A stretch of DNA of 64,000 bases from Escherichia coli (lineage in GTDB: Bacteria > Pseudomonadota > Gammaproteobacteria > Enterobacterales > Enterobacteriaceae): the NCBI RefSeq assembly GCF_003334385.1, contig NZ_QOWN01000004.1; one strand, written 5' to 3'. The notes under the pieces were generated by a model. That model made no database searches, was not told where the DNA came from, and was given only the letters and a program-made list of their open reading frames with translations. A program made the position numbers and the translations under genes. Positions 22,711 to 56,822 of this stretch are shown in pieces (position 1 is the stretch's first letter; each line of letters starts with the position of its first letter).

Positions 22711-22899
22711 CAGGGACATCCTTTTATCATCGGGAATACGAAAGAAAAGGGAGAATAAACGCCTTACTTATAGAACAGTGAAGAATGCCACAATTTTACG
22801 CTTTGAAAATGATGACACTATCACAGTTGGCGCATTCATTAACGATAGGGTATAAGTAAAACAATAAGTTAACACCGCTCACAGAGACGAGGTGGAGAA

Positions 22900-26123: not shown

Positions 26124-26297
26124 ATCTTATCCGACCTTTCAGGCCAGATCCTCGGAAGGGGAAGTTGATTAATTTGTGTGAAATACACATTGAAAGCCGA
26201 TTCGAAGAAAGTGAACCGGCATTTTCAGTGGCTAGTATAGCGTAAGGTACTGTAAAGTCGCCAGAGGGTTAAAATTCAGACTGCTGATAAATGCAAT

Positions 26298-26402
26298 ACT
26301 GCCTGATGCGCTATGCCAATCAGGCCTACGCAGTCCTTGCAATATATTGAATTTGGACGATTTTGTAGGCCTGGTAAGGCGTTTACGCCGCATCTGGCAT
26401 AA
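26298..26402. repeat. REP/BIME cluster between ytfL and msrA
   Basis: tgcctgatgcgctatgccaatcaggcctacg ... gtaggcctggtaaggcgtttacgccgcatctggca: inverted REP units. Confidence 0.75.
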
Positions 26403-35324: not shown

Positions 35325-35435
35325 GCTATGCCTGATGCCGATTCGTAGGCCGGATAAGGCGCTCGCGCCGCATCCGGCGGTGGTGCGCTGAAGCCTGATG
35401 CGACGCTTACCGCGTCTTATCATGCCTACTGGGAG
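35325..35435. repeat. REP/BIME cluster between ytfQ and ytfR
   Basis: gcctgatgccgattcgtaggccggataaggcgctcgcgccgcatccggcgg ... gcctgatgcgacgcttaccgcgtcttatcatgcctac. Confidence 0.75.
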
Positions 35436-41561: not shown

Positions 41562-41695
41562 CGGCCTTAGCCTGATATAGTGTGCGTAGGCCGGATAAGG
41601 CGTTCACGCCGCATCCGGCATTTGAGCATAGTGCCTGATGCGACGCTTGATGCGTCTTATCAGGCCTACAGGTGCACCGCATCCGGCAAACCATA
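41562..41695. repeat. REP/BIME cluster between mpl and yjgA
   Basis: gtaggccggataaggcgttcacgccgcatccggca ... gcctgatgcgacgcttgatgcgtcttatcaggcctac ... ccgcatccggca. Confidence 0.8.
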
Positions 41696-50725: not shown

Positions 50726-51673
50726 TCAGGACAGGGTGGCGGGGATGATGATTTGTTGCGGTTCGCTGCGCCCGGTTACCTGTGCGATCAATTGGCAGGC
50801 CGCCTGGCGTCCAGCTTCGGCGTAACCAGGATCTACGGTGACGATCTCCGGATGAAGGAATTTCATTAACGGCGTATTACCGACGCTCGCCAGTTGCAAG
50901 GTGTCGATGCGTTGCTCTTGCAGGTATTTACTTGCGCCAAGTGCCAGCGTGTCGGTTGCGCACAGTAAGGCGGTAGTTTCAGGCGTAATCACTTTTGCTA
51001 CGTTCTCATAGCCTTGCTTCATAGCAAGCCCTGGCAGAGCGGCAACGGGATGCAGTTTATGCGCTTTGCAGAACGCCAGGTAGGCTTCGTGACGTCGCTT
51101 ACCGGTCGTCACGTCACTGTGCGGCACGCCGAGATAACTGATATTACGATGCCCCTGGTCATAGAGCCGTTGCATCAGGATCTTGATTGCCCCTTCGTCG
51201 TCATAACAGACCGAAGCAAAGCCTTTTGCGTCACGCGCCAGCAGAACCAGCGATGACTGCCAGTGGGCTAACATTTCTTCTGTTATGCCGGTAAAACCGA
51301 ACAGCACTACGCCGTCGATATTACGCCGTTTTAGGATCCCCAAATGTTCGGCAACTAATTGCGGGGAAAACTGACTTTCCATCATGATTGGGTCGTAACC
51401 TTGTTCATAGAACGCTGGCAGCATGGTTTGAACGGCGAGATTTTCTGACAACGAATCCAGGCGGGTAACAATGATGGCGACCACTTTATCGCTTTGCCCA
51501 CGCATAGCGCGCGCAGAGCGGGAAGGGGAAAATCCATGCTGATTCATCACTGCTTCCACGCGCTCGCGCGTGCGCTGGCTCACGCCGCTTTCGTTATTCA
51601 GCACCCGGGAAACCGTAGATTTCCCCACGCCGCTTAAGCGCGCGATGTCTTTGATGGTCAGCCGATTTTGCAT
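50726..51673 (-). CDS. treR: Trehalose operon repressor TreR (LacI family)
   Basis: 315 aa, MQNRLTIKDIARLSGVGKSTVSRVLNNESGVSQRTRERV... Confidence 0.96.
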   Translation of the reverse strand: MQNRLTIKDIARLSGVGKSTVSRVLNNESGVSQRTRERVEAVMNQHGFSPSRSARAMRGQSDKVVAIIVTRLDSLSENLAVQTMLPAFYEQGYDPIMMESQFSPQLVAEHLGILKRRNIDGVVLFGFTGITEEMLAHWQSSLVLLARDAKGFASVCYDDEGAIKILMQRLYDQGHRNISYLGVPHSDVTTGKRRHEAYLAFCKAHKLHPVAALPGLAMKQGYENVAKVITPETTALLCATDTLALGASKYLQEQRIDTLQLASVGNTPLMKFLHPEIVTVDPGYAEAGRQAACQLIAQVTGRSEPQQIIIPATLS

Positions 51674-51747
51674 CCTGTTGTCCCGTAACGTGTTGTTTAA
51701 TTATTTGAGGCTAACTTTACCCGTGCATTCAGCAATGGGTAAAGTCT

Positions 51748-51764
51748 GGTTTATCGTTGGTTTA
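51748..51764 (+). promoter_or_regulatory. PhoP box (direct repeat) in the mgtA promoter
   Basis: ggttta-tcgtt-ggttta matches the PhoP consensus (T/G)GTTTA-N5-(T/G)GTTTA. Confidence 0.7.
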
Positions 51765-51779
51765 GTTGCCAGCAGGTAT

Positions 51780-52051
51780 TATATCGCCATAAATGCTACG
51801 AATATTATTGGATTCTCCTTATTATTTGCGGCGCTTTTTTCACTTACCGGAGGTTATATGGAACCTGATCCCACGCCTCTCCCTCGACGGAGATTAAAAC
51901 TTTTTCGGTAAGCCCGTCTTTTCACGGCGTTACCGGATGCGTAAGGCCGTGACGTTTTAACGTCCCTGCTCAGCTTTATTACCTTCAGGTAAGGCTTCGC
52001 CACGCCTGAAGACATTTCTGTACTGTTTCAGACAGTGCGGAGGGACTCCTT
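51780..52051 (+). promoter_or_regulatory. mgtA 5' leader (Mg2+/proline-responsive attenuation region containing mgtL)
   Basis: ~270-nt untranslated leader between the PhoP box and the mgtA start, containing the mgtL ORF; boundaries approximate. Confidence 0.5.
51858..51911 (+). CDS. mgtL: mgtA leader peptide MgtL (proline-rich, 17 aa)
   Basis: ATG at 51858 after GGAGG; encodes [17 protein letters not shown] within the long mgtA 5' leader. Confidence 0.8.
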
Positions 52052-54748
52052 ATGTTTAAAGAAATTTTTACCCGGCTCATTCGCCATTTACCTTCCCGTC
52101 TGGTTCATCGTGATCCATTGCCTGGCGCGCAGCAGACAGTGAATACGGTGGTCCCGCCGTCCTTAAGTGCGCATTGCCTGAAAATGGCGGTGATGCCCGA
52201 AGAAGAATTGTGGAAAACGTTCGACACCCATCCGGAAGGGTTAAATCAGGCGGAAGTGGAATCTGCCCGCGAACAACATGGTGAAAATAAATTACCCGCA
52301 CAACAACCGTCGCCGTGGTGGGTACATTTATGGGTCTGCTATCGCAACCCCTTTAATATTTTACTCACCATTCTCGGCGCTATTTCTTACGCCACGGAAG
52401 ATTTATTTGCCGCGGGCGTTATCGCGCTAATGGTCGCCATTTCTACGTTGCTGAACTTTATTCAGGAAGCACGTTCCACTAAAGCGGCAGATGCCCTGAA
52501 AGCGATGGTCAGCAATACTGCGACGGTGCTGCGCGTAATTAACGACAAAGGCGAAAATGGCTGGCTGGAGATCCCGATCGACCAGCTGGTGCCCGGCGAT
52601 ATTATAAAACTGGCGGCGGGAGATATGATCCCGGCAGATTTACGTATCTTGCAGGCGCGGGATCTGTTCGTCGCTCAGGCGTCGTTAACCGGTGAGTCTC
52701 TGCCCGTAGAAAAAGCCGCAACCACTCGCCAGCCGGAGCACAGCAATCCGCTGGAGTGCGACACCCTGTGTTTTATGGGCACCACCGTGGTGAGCGGCAC
52801 GGCACAAGCAATGGTGATTGCTACAGGTGCCAATACCTGGTTTGGTCAACTGGCGGGGCGTGTTAGTGAGCAGGAAAGCGAGCCGAATGCCTTTCAGCAA
52901 GGGATCAGCCGCGTCAGTATGCTGCTGATTCGCTTTATGCTGGTGATGGCACCGGTGGTGCTGTTAATCAATGGCTACACCAAAGGCGACTGGTGGGAAG
53001 CGGCGCTGTTTGCGCTTTCGGTCGCGGTAGGCCTAACGCCGGAAATGTTGCCGATGATTGTTACCTCGACGCTGGCGCGCGGCGCAGTAAAGCTGTCGAA
53101 ACAGAAAGTGATCGTCAAACATCTGGATGCTATTCAGAACTTTGGCGCAATGGATATTCTGTGCACTGATAAAACCGGCACCCTGACACAGGACAAAATT
53201 GTGCTGGAGAATCATACCGATATCTCCGGTAAAACCAGCGAACGCGTGCTGCATAGCGCGTGGTTGAACAGTCATTATCAGACCGGACTTAAAAACCTGC
53301 TCGATACAGCGGTGCTCGAAGGTACGGATGAAGAGTCAGCGCGCTCGCTGGCCAGCCGTTGGCAAAAAATTGATGAGATTCCGTTTGATTTCGAGCGTCG
53401 TCGGATGTCGGTGGTAGTGGCAGAAAATACCGAACACCATCAGCTGGTTTGCAAAGGTGCATTGCAGGAAATCCTCAATGTGTGTTCGCAGGTGCGTCAC
53501 AATGGCGAGATTGTGCCGCTCGATGACATCATGCTGCGTAAGATTAAGCGGGTTACTGATACGCTGAATCGTCAGGGGCTGCGCGTGGTTGCGGTGGCGA
53601 CGAAATACCTGCCAGCGCGTGAAGGAGATTACCAGCGGGCGGATGAATCCGACCTGATCCTCGAAGGATATATTGCTTTCCTTGATCCGCCAAAAGAGAC
53701 AACTGCTCCGGCACTGAAGGCATTAAAAGCGAGTGGAATTACCGTAAAAATCCTTACTGGCGACAGTGAGTTAGTTGCAGCGAAAGTGTGCCATGAAGTG
53801 GGGCTGGACGCGGGAGAGGTGGTCATTGGTAGTGATATTGAAACGCTATCTGACGACGAACTGGCTAATCTCGCACAGCGCACCACGCTGTTTGCTCGTC
53901 TGACGCCGATGCATAAAGAACGCATTGTGACCTTACTGAAGCGCGAAGGGCATGTGGTTGGCTTTATGGGCGATGGTATTAATGATGCGCCCGCCTTACG
54001 CGCTGCGGATATCGGCATTTCTGTGGACGGCGCGGTAGATATCGCCCGTGAAGCGGCTGATATCATCCTGCTGGAAAAAAGCCTGATGGTGCTGGAAGAG
54101 GGGGTTATTGAGGGACGTCGCACTTTCGCCAACATGCTGAAATACATCAAAATGACGGCGAGCTCTAACTTCGGTAATGTGTTCAGCGTGCTGGTGGCGA
54201 GTGCTTTCTTGCCCTTCCTGCCGATGTTGCCGTTACACTTGCTTATTCAGAACCTGCTGTACGATGTGTCACAGGTGGCGATCCCGTTTGATAACGTCGA
54301 CGACGAGCAAATTCAAAAGCCGCAGCGTTGGAATCCGGCGGATCTGGGGCGCTTTATGATCTTCTTCGGACCGATCAGCTCGATCTTCGATATTCTGACG
54401 TTTTGCCTGATGTGGTGGGTATTCCATGCCAACACGCCGGAAACGCAAACGCTGTTCCAGTCGGGATGGTTTGTGGTGGGCTTACTGTCGCAAACGCTGA
54501 TTGTGCATATGATCCGTACCCGCCGTGTGCCGTTTATTCAGAGCTGTGCATCGTGGCCGTTAATGATCATGACCGTGATCGTGATGATTGTCGGGATCGC
54601 ATTGCCGTTTTCACCGCTGGCCAGTTATCTGCAGCTGCAGGCGCTGCCGTTAAGCTATTTCCCGTGGCTGGTTGCGATTCTGGCAGGGTATATGACGTTA
54701 ACCCAGTTGGTGAAAGGGTTCTATAGCCGTCGTTACGGCTGGCAGTAA
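52052..54748 (+). CDS. mgtA: Mg2+-importing P-type ATPase MgtA
   Basis: 898 aa; P-type motifs DKTGTLT and GDGINDAPAL; N-terminus MFKEIFTRLIRHLPSRLVHRDPLPG... Confidence 0.97.
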   Translation: MFKEIFTRLIRHLPSRLVHRDPLPGAQQTVNTVVPPSLSAHCLKMAVMPEEELWKTFDTHPEGLNQAEVESAREQHGENKLPAQQPSPWWVHLWVCYRNPFNILLTILGAISYATEDLFAAGVIALMVAISTLLNFIQEARSTKAADALKAMVSNTATVLRVINDKGENGWLEIPIDQLVPGDIIKLAAGDMIPADLRILQARDLFVAQASLTGESLPVEKAATTRQPEHSNPLECDTLCFMGTTVVSGTAQAMVIATGANTWFGQLAGRVSEQESEPNAFQQGISRVSMLLIRFMLVMAPVVLLINGYTKGDWWEAALFALSVAVGLTPEMLPMIVTSTLARGAVKLSKQKVIVKHLDAIQNFGAMDILCTDKTGTLTQDKIVLENHTDISGKTSERVLHSAWLNSHYQTGLKNLLDTAVLEGTDEESARSLASRWQKIDEIPFDFERRRMSVVVAENTEHHQLVCKGALQEILNVCSQVRHNGEIVPLDDIMLRKIKRVTDTLNRQGLRVVAVATKYLPAREGDYQRADESDLILEGYIAFLDPPKETTAPALKALKASGITVKILTGDSELVAAKVCHEVGLDAGEVVIGSDIETLSDDELANLAQRTTLFARLTPMHKERIVTLLKREGHVVGFMGDGINDAPALRAADIGISVDGAVDIAREAADIILLEKSLMVLEEGVIEGRRTFANMLKYIKMTASSNFGNVFSVLVASAFLPFLPMLPLHLLIQNLLYDVSQVAIPFDNVDDEQIQKPQRWNPADLGRFMIFFGPISSIFDILTFCLMWWVFHANTPETQTLFQSGWFVVGLLSQTLIVHMIRTRRVPFIQSCASWPLMIMTVIVMIVGIALPFSPLASYLQLQALPLSYFPWLVAILAGYMTLTQLVKGFYSRRYGWQ

Positions 54749-54774: not shown

Positions 54775-54950
54775 ATTCAGATTGCAGACAAAGTGAGCGT
54801 TGTTCATGCCGGATGCGGCGTAAATGCCTTATCCGGCCTACAAATTCAATCAATTGCAGGAATCACGTAGGCCTGATAAGCGTAGCGCATCAGGCAATTT
54901 TGCGTTTGTCATCAGATTTAATCCGGGCATGATAGCCCGGATTTCCATCA
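54775..54950. repeat. REP/BIME cluster plus hairpin between mgtA and ridA
   Basis: catgccggatgcggcgtaaatgccttatccggcctac ... gtaggcctgataagcgtagcgcatcaggca ... atccgggcatgatagcccggat. Confidence 0.75.
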
Positions 54951-54953
54951 AGA

Positions 54954-55340
54954 TTAGCGACGAACAGCGATCGCTTCGATCTCAATTTTTACGTCTTTCG
55001 GCAGACGGGCAACTTCAACGCAAGAACGTGCCGGGAAGGTGGCATTGTGTTCGGTGAAGAAGGCTTCGTAGGTAGCATTAACGGTTGCGAAGTCGTTCAG
55101 ATCTTTCACAAACACGGTGGTTTTAACGATGTCGCCCACTTTCAGGCCTGCGGCTTCGACGATCGCTTTTACGTTATCCAGCGACTGACGTGCCTGTGCA
55201 GCGACGTCTGCCGGTACTTCGCCCGTTTTCGGATTTACCGGGATCTGGCCGGAGGTGATGATCATATTGCCCAGATCAACGCCCTGTACGTAAGGACCGA
55301 TAGCTGCCGGTGCATTTTCCGTCGCGATAGTTTTGCTCAT
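54954..55340 (-). CDS. ridA: Enamine/imine deaminase RidA (YjgF)
   Basis: 128 aa from MSKTIATENAPAAIGPYVQGVDLGNMIITSGQIPV...; the track start is upstream. Confidence 0.95.
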   Translation of the reverse strand: MSKTIATENAPAAIGPYVQGVDLGNMIITSGQIPVNPKTGEVPADVAAQARQSLDNVKAIVEAAGLKVGDIVKTTVFVKDLNDFATVNATYEAFFTEHNATFPARSCVEVARLPKDVKIEIEAIAVRR

Positions 55341-55412
55341 GATTTCTCCTTTATTACAGCGGTAAAAAGTCTGGCTCATTATAGGGAGCCAGACTTTTAT
55401 TACCAACCGCAA

Positions 55413-55874
55413 TTAATTGGCCAGCACCACATTATGGGAAAACTCTTTTTCACAGTATTTGCATTTGAGCGCGATGTCATTGGCGCGTTTTCGCACGGCA
55501 AAGCTGGAAGAAACCGGTTCGGCATGGCTGATACAGTTGCTGTTCGGGCAGACCAGCACATTGTCGATGCGCTCCGGCAGACTGGGGCGCGATTTACCCA
55601 CCACTTCATAGTTGTCGATACGGTTAACCGTGGCTTGCGGCGCATACAATGCCAGTTGATCTACCTGATCTTCACTCAAAAAGGTATTTTCGATTTTGAT
55701 CAGATCTTTGCGGCCCATCTCGCCAGAAGGCAGGTTCAGACCAATGGTGATGCGCTGATCCGTTTCGGTCAGCTTGAACAGACTCAACAGCTTAAAACCG
55801 ATCTGGGCGGGGATATGGTCAATTACCGTGCCGCGTTTAATAGCTTCAACCTGCAATTTATTATCGTGTGTCAT
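55413..55874 (-). CDS. pyrI: Aspartate carbamoyltransferase regulatory subunit PyrI
   Basis: 153 aa, [30 protein letters not shown]...; C-terminal Zn site [12 protein letters not shown]...CKYCEKEF. Confidence 0.97.
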
Positions 55875-55886
55875 CTCTATTTCCCC

Positions 55887-56822
55887 TTACAGTACCAGAT
55901 CGCGATTCAGAACCAGTGCCAGTAACGCCTGGCGAGCGAAAATCCCGTTGCCTGCCTGCTGGAAGTACCAGGCGTGTGGCGTTTTATCAACATCCGTCGC
56001 AATCTCATCAACACGCGGCAGCGGATGCAGCACTTTCATATTGGCTTTGGCGTTGTGGAGATCGCTGGCGCGAAGAACAAACTGCGCTTTCACGTTGGCG
56101 TACTCGGACGGGTCCAGACGCTCTTTTTGCACGCGGGTCATGTACAGGATGTCTACTTCCGCCATCACTTCTTCAATAGAGCTGTGCAGACTCCAGGCGA
56201 TCCCTTTTTCATCGAGCATATCAAGGATGTATTGCGGCATTGCCAGCGCGTCCGGCGCGATGAAGTAAAAACGGTTGCCGTCGAACTTCGCTAACGCCTG
56301 AGTCAGGGAGTGAACGGTGCGGCCATATTTCAGGTCACCAACCATTGCGACGTGGAGATTGTCCAGACGCCCCTGGGTTTCCTGAATGGTGAATAAGTCC
56401 AGCAAGGTTTGCGTCGGATGTTGGTTGGAGCCATCACCGGCATTCAGTACCGGTACATTGCCAGAAAATTCGGTGGCCAGGCGCGCCGCACCTTCCTGCG
56501 GATGACGCATCACTATCGCATCAACGTAAGTGCTGATAACCGAAATGGTATCGGCCAGCGTTTCGCCCTTTTTACCCAGTGATGTATTGGCGCTGTCGGA
56601 GAAGCCCACCACGCTGGCACCCAGGCGGTGCATGGAAGTTTCGAAAGAGAGGCGGGTACGGGTAGAGGCTTCGAAGAAACAGCTGGCAATGACTTTGTGC
56701 TTCAACAGCTCTGGTTGCGGGTTTGCTTTCAGTTTCGCCGCTGTCGCCAGCACCAGATTAAGGTCATCGCGACTAAGGTCGTTTATGGAAATGATATGTT
56801 TCTGATATAGCGGATTAGCCAT
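55887..56822 (-). CDS. pyrB: Aspartate carbamoyltransferase catalytic subunit PyrB
   Basis: 311 aa, [35 protein letters not shown]...STRTR... Confidence 0.97.

Follow-up and report, generated by a model that had tools for sequence, protein, structure and literature searches.

The known systems closest to the locus studied here are the mgtA control regions of Salmonella enterica and of Escherichia coli itself. In Salmonella, the mgtA promoter has been assigned to Architecture I, in which a single PhoP box in direct orientation, here TGGTTTATCGTTGGTTTAA, precedes the -10 hexamer by 12 nt, and PhoP binding to it has been documented by EMSA (PMC3335776). The Salmonella leader, known from work that includes Cromie 2006, Park 2010 and Hollands 2012, is 264 nt long and contains a 17-codon ORF, mgtL, with Pro at codons 3, 5, 7 and 9. 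The dependence of mgtL on EF-P and on its Pro codons was worked out in Salmonella, and Rho-dependent termination has been demonstrated in the Salmonella mgtA leader. For E. coli, a model has been published in which stems A and B alternate with stem C (PMC11552253). The EPDP motif of E. coli MgtL provokes a Mg2+-sensitive premature abortion of translation, through intrinsic ribosome destabilisation (PMC11282234). This abortion is modulated by bL31 and EttA, and replacing Glu2 and Asp4 of MgtL in E. coli abolishes expression of an mgtA reporter. Furthermore, Northern data, in the form in which they are cited in PMC11282234, indicate that regulation via mgtL takes place at the transcript level.

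Two other systems share parts of this design. In the corA/corL leader, as in that of mgtA, a stem A forming a three-way junction encloses a short upstream ORF (uORF), the OFF (A, B) and ON (C) folds exclude each other and expression responds to Mg2+. However, corA is another gene, with a constitutive promoter devoid of a PhoP box, and corL contains a single conserved Pro. The trp and his attenuators resemble mgtL in that the rate of translation of a leader ORF selects between alternative hairpins with one common arm; trp also has the same polarity as mgtA, with stalling leading to read-through. Unlike these attenuators, the mgtA leader has no intrinsic terminator hairpin followed by a U tract, and its signal would be ribosome stability or Pro decoding instead of the availability of the amino acid that the pathway makes.

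We analyzed a stretch of 64,000 nt of E. coli DNA, hereafter the window, in which a first-pass annotation had presented positions 51748-52051 as the control region of mgtA, with a PhoP box (GGTTTA-N5-GGTTTA) and a 17-codon mgtL preceded by a GGAGG ribosome binding site (RBS), and had considered this to be known biology. Both elements are present (Table 1), and the region is indeed the native E. coli mgtA control region, which is well studied and already annotated in RefSeq. A 501-nt query across it matches all of the 5426 complete E. coli genomes (5426/5426), many at 100% identity, and the features beneath the 100%-identical matches are annotated as treR, mgtL and mgtA in E. coli chromosomes. 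The downstream ORF matches the MgtA equivalog TIGR01524 with 1607 bits (cutoff 611), and the neighbouring TreR and TreB match the NCBIfam equivalogs TIGR02405 and NF008236, respectively, so that treR-treB lies upstream of the control region and mgtA downstream. Every defining feature of such a region that can be tested on sequence is found here: the RF01056 element, MgtL and an Architecture I PhoP promoter. The binding of PhoP to this region and the response of mgtA to Mg2+ would be those described in the literature. As a textbook case of layered control, in which a two-component promoter is combined with a uORF-coupled RNA switch, the locus holds little discovery value.

Table 1. Features of the mgtA control region and its neighbours (positions in the window; MFE, minimum free energy structure; SD, Shine-Dalgarno sequence)
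Feature	Position	Strand	Basis and remarks
treR	50726..51673	-	ORF list
113-aa ORF, GTG start	51570..51911	+	mechanical ORF list
PhoP box GGTTTATCGTTGGTTTA, direct repeat GGTTTA-TCGTT-GGTTTA	51748..51764	+	sequence, unique exact match, conservation
Predicted -10, TATTAT	51777..51782	+	inferred; TAT.AT block conserved in orthologue alignment
mgtA 5' leader, ~262 nt	51790..52051	+	start (51789-51790) inferred from PMC11552253 numbering
Stem A, 5' arm CUUACCGGAGG	51843..51853	+	Rfam alignment, MFE, RNAalifold; pairs with 51902-51912
mgtL SD, GGAGG	51849-51853	+	sequence; inside stem A 5' arm
mgtL, 17 codons + stop	51858..51911	+	sequence; annotated WP_001387276.1 in identical genomes
Switching arm UUUUCGGUAAG	51902..51912	+	stem A 3' arm and stem C 5' arm; holds CGG codon and UAA
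Stem-loop C, alternative	51904..51937	+	MFE of truncated transcript; constrained fold
Stem-loop B, 11 pairs, loop CGGAUGC	51923..51951	+	Rfam, MFE, RNAalifold
GUCCCUG box	51962..51968	+	conserved, 3' of stem-loop B; in C-over-G stretch
Leader hairpin CUUCAGGU...GCCUGAAG	51983..52011	+	MFE; core 51987-52007 by RNAalifold (alignment A2, columns 161-181)
Leader hairpin running into mgtA SD	52018..52040	+	MFE; conserved core 52020-52038 directly 5' of SD
mgtA SD, GGAGGG	52039..52044	+	sequence, conserved; 7 nt before ATG 52052
mgtA, Mg2+-importing P-type ATPase, 898 aa	52052..54748	+	TIGR01524, annotated mgtA; outside 51748-52051

The two half-sites of the PhoP box, GGTTTA at 51748-51753 and again at 51759-51764, are separated by TCGTT and fit the pattern (T/G)GTTTA-N5-(T/G)GTTTA in direct orientation. 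The window contains one exact copy of the box, and none of 100 shuffles that preserve dinucleotides contains any. If one mismatch is tolerated, the number expected by chance rises to 0.21; the motif by itself is therefore just moderately improbable, and context is needed. Position, 12 nt before the putative -10 and upstream of mgtA, together with conservation among orthologues, makes what we read as a PhoP box convincing. An alignment of orthologous upstream regions shows conservation of the proximal GGTTTA (in nearly all sequences), of the spacing and of the TAT.AT hexamer. At the distal half-site, 25 of the 50 orthologues examined have a perfect copy, and several Citrobacter have a degenerate one (GGTATA or TGTATA). 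All 17 letters of the E. coli box recur unchanged in the core of the Salmonella box, and the gap to the -10 (51765-51776) has the same length in both. A generic sigma-70 scan of 51600-52200 returned no -35 consensus and no -35/-10 pair, which fits the expectation for an activator-dependent promoter, where such a scan is uninformative. The promoter would thus belong to Architecture I (class II-type), with the box overlapping and replacing the -35 element. In Shigella flexneri, which is effectively E. coli, the mgtA promoter has been shown by EMSA and DNase footprint to bind phosphorylated PhoP (PMC5775216).

The start of the leader can be placed from published numbering. Since GUAAGGCCGUGA is counted as leader nucleotides 152-163 in PMC11552253 and is located at 51941-51952 in the window, position +1 should be at about 51790 and the leader about 262 nt long, close to the length in Salmonella. 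With the mgtA ATG at 52052, the last leader base is 52051. Within this leader, mgtL extends from an ATG at 51858 to a TAA at 51909-51911, and its UAA falls inside the switching arm, within CGGUAAG. The encoded peptide begins with MEPDPTPLP, with Pro at codons 3, 5, 7 and 9, as in Salmonella, and acidic residues at 2 and 4 (EPDP); the Salmonella peptide begins with MDPEP where E. coli has MEPDP. At the equivalent site of a genome that is 100% identical over the 501 nt, the annotated product is WP_001387276.1, 'mgtA regulatory leader peptide MgtL'.

The Rfam model RF01056 (Magnesium-II, Mg sensor) matches positions 51843-51958 with 121.9 bits (E = 4.9e-24). The match is full-length (model positions 1-115 of 115) and scores about three times the gathering score of 40. 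The full leader has a predicted MFE of -85.4 kcal/mol, lower than that of 200 out of 200 shuffles (z = -4.47). In this structure, stem A closes around mgtL and masks its Shine-Dalgarno sequence by pairing, and stem-loop B is interrupted by one G.G mismatch at 51929/51945. The switching arm has two possible partners, 51843-51853 in stem A and 51929-51937 in stem C: besides its stem A partner, UUUUCGGUAAG can pair with GUUACCGG (51929-51936), which is nearly a copy of the stem A 5' arm. Stem-loop C combines pairs between 51906-51911 and 51930-51935 with pairs between 51914-51917 and 51924-51927, and is mutually exclusive with stems A and B. A transcript truncated at 51935 has it as its MFE, and it also forms in the full-length leader when pairing of the 5' arm of A and of the mgtL codons is prevented. 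The structure prediction called for by the first-pass annotation therefore yields both of the alternatives, A and B in the MFE and C in nascent or constrained folds. When both states are enforced, A+B is favoured over C by a predicted 3.5 kcal/mol. Under ViennaRNA hard constraints, a 28-nt ribosome footprint at mgtL codon 3, 5, 7 or 9 left stem A in place and produced no stem C. Stem A is retained in these foldings because the program ignores sterics; since stem C requires that the 5' arm of A be blocked as well, a thermodynamic model alone fails to reproduce the switch.

A comparison with the characterised enterobacterial leaders, also advised at the outset, identifies the region as the same locus as in E. 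coli K-12 (promoter, mgtL and RF01056 leader), with the same architecture as in Salmonella: the A/B versus C organization is common to both, as is the placement of the stop codon of mgtL within the switching arm. Two details of the stems differ. The G that Escherichia has at 51929 faces a second G in B as well as in C, giving a G.G mismatch in each, and one position of stem B is a G-C pair in Escherichia in place of U-A in Salmonella.

To collect orthologues, we scanned one genome per species with a DNA pattern over mgtL codons 1-9, which yielded 57 loci. Fifty-two of these are Enterobacteriaceae loci with an ORF of 15-17 codons. The other five matches (in Sphingomonas, Nonomuraea, Boseongicola, Opitutaceae and Actinacidiphila) lie inside long ORFs, are ascribed to chance and were discarded. 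An MgtA-like N-terminus is found 185-290 nt downstream in 51 of 51 loci with enough sequence, out of the 52. Alignment A1 comprises 52 leaders, that is, the window and 51 orthologous loci. As the pattern spans mgtL codons 1-9, the conservation of that segment, including the Pro/acidic motif, is imposed by the search and divergent leaders are unsampled; the stems considered below fall outside the pattern, save for two small hairpins inside A.

In all 52 orthologues, a 15-17-codon ORF with a Shine-Dalgarno sequence and an ATG ends with CGG-UAA in the switching arm. The CCGGUAA of this arm is invariant in the 52 sequences, and MgtL residues 10-16 vary freely among orthologues. For the invariance of the last Arg codon, its place in CCGGUAAG, a switching arm that is itself invariant, appears a better explanation than selection acting on the peptide.

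The A+B structure (30 pairs) is paired in 96.7% of cells across the 52 leaders, versus 35-49% with slid partners. Taken separately over the same sequences, stem A reaches 96.1% and stem B 97.7%, with changes on both sides in 7 of the 11 pairs of B. Double changes affect 8 pairs of A+B, 7 of them in stem B, and none of 500 shuffles reaches the observed values. Stem C is paired in 89.3% of cells; combined with the small hairpin after B, the value is 89.5%, versus 25-44% when slid. The absence of conserved alternative structures, which would have spoken against attenuation, is thus not observed. Furthermore, column 73 covaries both with column 4 in stem A and with column 94 in stem C, where it forms the G73-C94 pair. 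In Atlantibacter, the switching arm ends with A instead of G, and the partners of this base in stem A and stem C have both changed from C to U. From 46 full leaders, RNAalifold independently predicts stems A and B plus two downstream hairpins; in the second of these (core 52020-52038), 6 of 7 pairs show compensatory changes. These patterns argue that the alternative A/B and C structures are present and under selection across Enterobacteriaceae. Through its three-way covariation, the comparative set restates selection on the switch.

We consider that the native mgtA region is subject to a two-layer control, in which initiation depends on PhoP and an A/B versus C switch is coupled to mgtL, with a probability of about 95%. 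The present analysis shows that the sequence elements are there, that they are those of the characterised locus and that the alternative structures are conserved and covary. In the first layer, low periplasmic Mg2+ would be sensed by PhoQ, leading to phosphorylated PhoP, which would bind the direct repeat at 51748-51764. Bound 12 nt before TATTAT in place of a -35 element, PhoP would recruit RNA polymerase, with transcription starting from about 51790. In the second layer, translation of mgtL would pick between the two folds. In the OFF state, UUUUCGGUAAG would pair back with CUUACCGGAGG to form stem A around mgtL, leaving stem-loop B free to form; in the ON state, it would pair forward with GUUACCGG to form stem-loop C, and B would be destroyed.

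When Mg2+ is ample, and Pro-tRNA and EF-P are available, ribosomes would traverse M-E-P-D-P-T-P-L-P and proceed to the UAA. Because this stop codon is inside the switching arm, complete translation of mgtL places the ribosome on the arm. The arm would be covered as the left half of B emerges, so that B may form and transcription stop before mgtA. This stop is a presumed step in E. coli, corresponding to the Rho-dependent event of Salmonella. When Mg2+ is low, ribosomes would stall or drop off at EPDP or at the alternating Pro codons, the switching arm would be left free, C would form and the polymerase would continue into mgtA. In this scheme, PhoP binding, the responses to Mg2+ and proline and the destabilisation of the ribosome are taken from the literature. 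The first-pass annotation had spoken of a Mg2+/proline-sensing attenuation. This wording describes the Salmonella model and needs one qualification: the proline and EF-P effects were established in Salmonella, and in E. coli Mg2+ sensing is now ascribed largely to ribosome drop-off at EPDP.

We may also hypothesize that Mg2+ is sensed by the leader RNA itself, acting as a genuine riboswitch in which Mg2+ binding directly stabilises A+B and mgtL translation plays a secondary role or serves only proline or osmotic responses. RF01056 is filed in Rfam as a riboswitch aptamer, Mg2+-dependent folding of the Salmonella RNA alone modulated Rho termination in vitro, and the debate between direct and translational sensing of Mg2+ is still ongoing (PMC11552253); the predicted advantage of A+B over C is also small enough that a bound ligand could reverse it. 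We nevertheless find this rather unlikely for E. coli, where mutating Glu2 and Asp4 of MgtL abolishes reporter expression and where loss of bL31 or EttA, which alters ribosome stability on mgtL, raises MgtA levels. In addition, a uORF, its Shine-Dalgarno sequence and a stop codon in the switching arm, conserved in 52/52 leaders, would be needless in a sensor made of RNA only. A different objection would be that the 113-aa ORF is a genuine gene, with mgtL forming merely its C-terminal end. This ORF is uninterrupted, has a GTG start and appears in the mechanical ORF list; it shares the frame and the stop of mgtL and begins 288 nt, or 96 codons, upstream of the mgtL ATG. However, it starts antisense within treR and crosses the treR-mgtA intergenic promoter region, its GTG lies upstream of the probable transcription start (~51790), and it is annotated in none of the genomes inspected. 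In the orthologues, the reading frame of mgtL stays open upstream of its ATG for anything from 5 to 119 codons, whereas the ATG, the GGAGG and the length of 15-17 codons are conserved. A coding role for the longer frame is hardly conceivable, and from the comparative evidence we regard it as an ORF-calling artefact, in line with the earlier remark that a spurious ORF hides mgtL. The practical value of the locus is that of a positive control, with a functional 17-codon gene recognised from raw sequence within a longer mechanical ORF.

In E. coli, a contribution of Rho to the silencing of mgtA in the OFF state is disputed: Rho-dependent termination, demonstrated in Salmonella, was reported as undetected in the E. 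coli mgtA leader (PMC11552253), and another source considers that it may lack conservation there. A terminator scan of 51600-52200 gave no intrinsic terminator. The excess of C over G is modest at 51950-52010 (C-G = +3 to +5), whereas it reaches +7 to +8 over the Pro codons of mgtL. The GUCCCUG box located in the former stretch is found in 40 of 46 orthologues. In the full-leader MFE, its GUCCCU (51962-51967) forms a 6-bp long-range helix with AGGGAC (52041-52046), so that the output in E. coli may differ from the Rho termination of Salmonella and be mainly translational, with this helix masking the mgtA RBS and transcription not being stopped. Such masking would account for the undetected Rho dependence, and both boxes are strongly conserved. 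Yet it seems a very improbable candidate: the helix shows no compensatory changes, it is broken by variants in several leaders (L009, L024, L035 and L041) and it is absent from the RNAalifold prediction, which led us to reject it as a conserved structure. Furthermore, the helix is also predicted where C replaces A+B and therefore would not distinguish ON from OFF, and the Northern data, as cited in PMC11282234, show transcript-level control through mgtL. Transcriptional control by the mgtL-coupled A/B versus C switch remains our preferred reading of the leader.

Finally, just three substitutions separate the window from the K-12 derivative J53 within 51748-52051, and all three are neutral-looking polymorphisms. 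One is in the spacer that follows the PhoP box and precedes the -10 (51769, C/T), one at leader nucleotide ~+3 (51792, A/G) and one in a Phe codon of mgtL, where it is synonymous (51905, T/C). The last of these changes one G-C pair to G.U in stem A and likewise one in stem C, with a predicted loss of 2.9 kcal/mol for each state, and therefore leaves the balance between A and C unmoved. MgtL (WP_001387276.1) and MgtA (WP_000471889.1) have identical protein accessions in E2865 and J53.

In the alignment of 52 Enterobacteriaceae leaders (A1), which includes the window, three Atlantibacter loci (L038, L049 and L050) display a three-way covariation, involving alignment columns 4, 73 and 94. Where the switching arm, the arm of stem A at the 3' end of mgtL, has changed from G to A, the base opposite in stem A has changed from C to U, and so has the base opposite in stem C, the alternative helix that excludes A and B. 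A second lineage-specific pattern involves window position 51929, which is G in Escherichia species and C or U in other genera. This G produces a G.G mismatch in stem B (51929/51945) as well as in stem C (51912/51929). In the same Escherichia lineage, a G-C pair replaces U-A at 51926/51948 of stem B, and stem C gains an extra pair through C51915.

The alignment also bears on how conservation of the leader peptide is to be read. Residues 10 to 16 of MgtL vary freely among species, and the final codon CGG followed by UAA is present in 52/52 leaders (A1 columns 55-73). What looks like C-terminal conservation of MgtL belongs to the RNA: it is the switching arm (CCGGUAAG) that is conserved.

Comparison of the control region with that of the K-12 derivative J53 revealed only three differences, at positions 51769, 51792 and 51905. 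At 51905 the window has T where K-12 has C; the codon change in mgtL is synonymous. The T turns the pair concerned into a G.U wobble in stem A and also in stem C, with a loss predicted by folding of 2.9 kcal/mol for each of the two states. As the predicted loss is equal, the balance of the switch would be unchanged.

A strongly conserved GUCCCUG box is complementary to the AGGGAC sequence in the Shine-Dalgarno region of mgtA, and the two pair with each other in the E. coli minimum-free-energy fold. Among orthologue leaders this pairing shows no covariation, and several variants disrupt it. A rut element is one possible reason for conservation of the box. At the other end of the leader, 5' of stem A, the first ~40 nt form a separate hairpin in every predicted fold; this region is just partially conserved among orthologues.

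Elements of the mgtA control region discussed in the text
Element	Position	Strand	Remark
5' leader hairpin	51795-51832	+	5' of stem A
Segment holding the last mgtL codon and stop	51903-51911	+	3' end of mgtL
GUCCCUG box	51962-51968	+	3' of stem-loop B; strongly conserved
AGGGAC	52041-52046	+	mgtA Shine-Dalgarno region

In Kosakonia and a MAG (L014, L033, L054), the 3' portion of the mgtA leader carries a ~100-nt insertion. A larger set of loci, to which L003, L031, L045, L056 and L058 also belong, harbors a ~45-nt insertion between an extra upstream GGTTTA and a GTATA-N5-GGTTTA box. Citrobacter amalonaticus S646 (L041) has an intact mgtL and intact leader structures, but no PhoP box is recognisable at the aligned position upstream of mgtL; a different promoter may have taken its place.

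Within E. coli, one complete genome, NZ_CP178558.1 (hit H40), matches the 321-nt promoter-leader query over only 52 nt and has no annotation there. Three matches to the promoter-leader region lie in records labelled plasmids. In strain E2865 (L001, 6827-7501), whose leader is identical to that of the window, an IS621-family transposase gene lies directly downstream of mgtA. The counterpart of this site in the window (54950-56822) contains minus-strand ORFs of 152, 153 and 311 aa, by their sizes candidates for ridA, pyrI and pyrB. Elsewhere in the window, six further Rfam matches exceed the gathering score (2828-2912, 22711-22833, 26185-26242 and 26322-26364, both on the minus strand, 35348-35426 and 41589-41666). 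Their families are the RpsF leader, ES239 sRNA, STnc450, ES036 (CssrF) and, in two copies, the REP-derived naRNA4 (CssrE).
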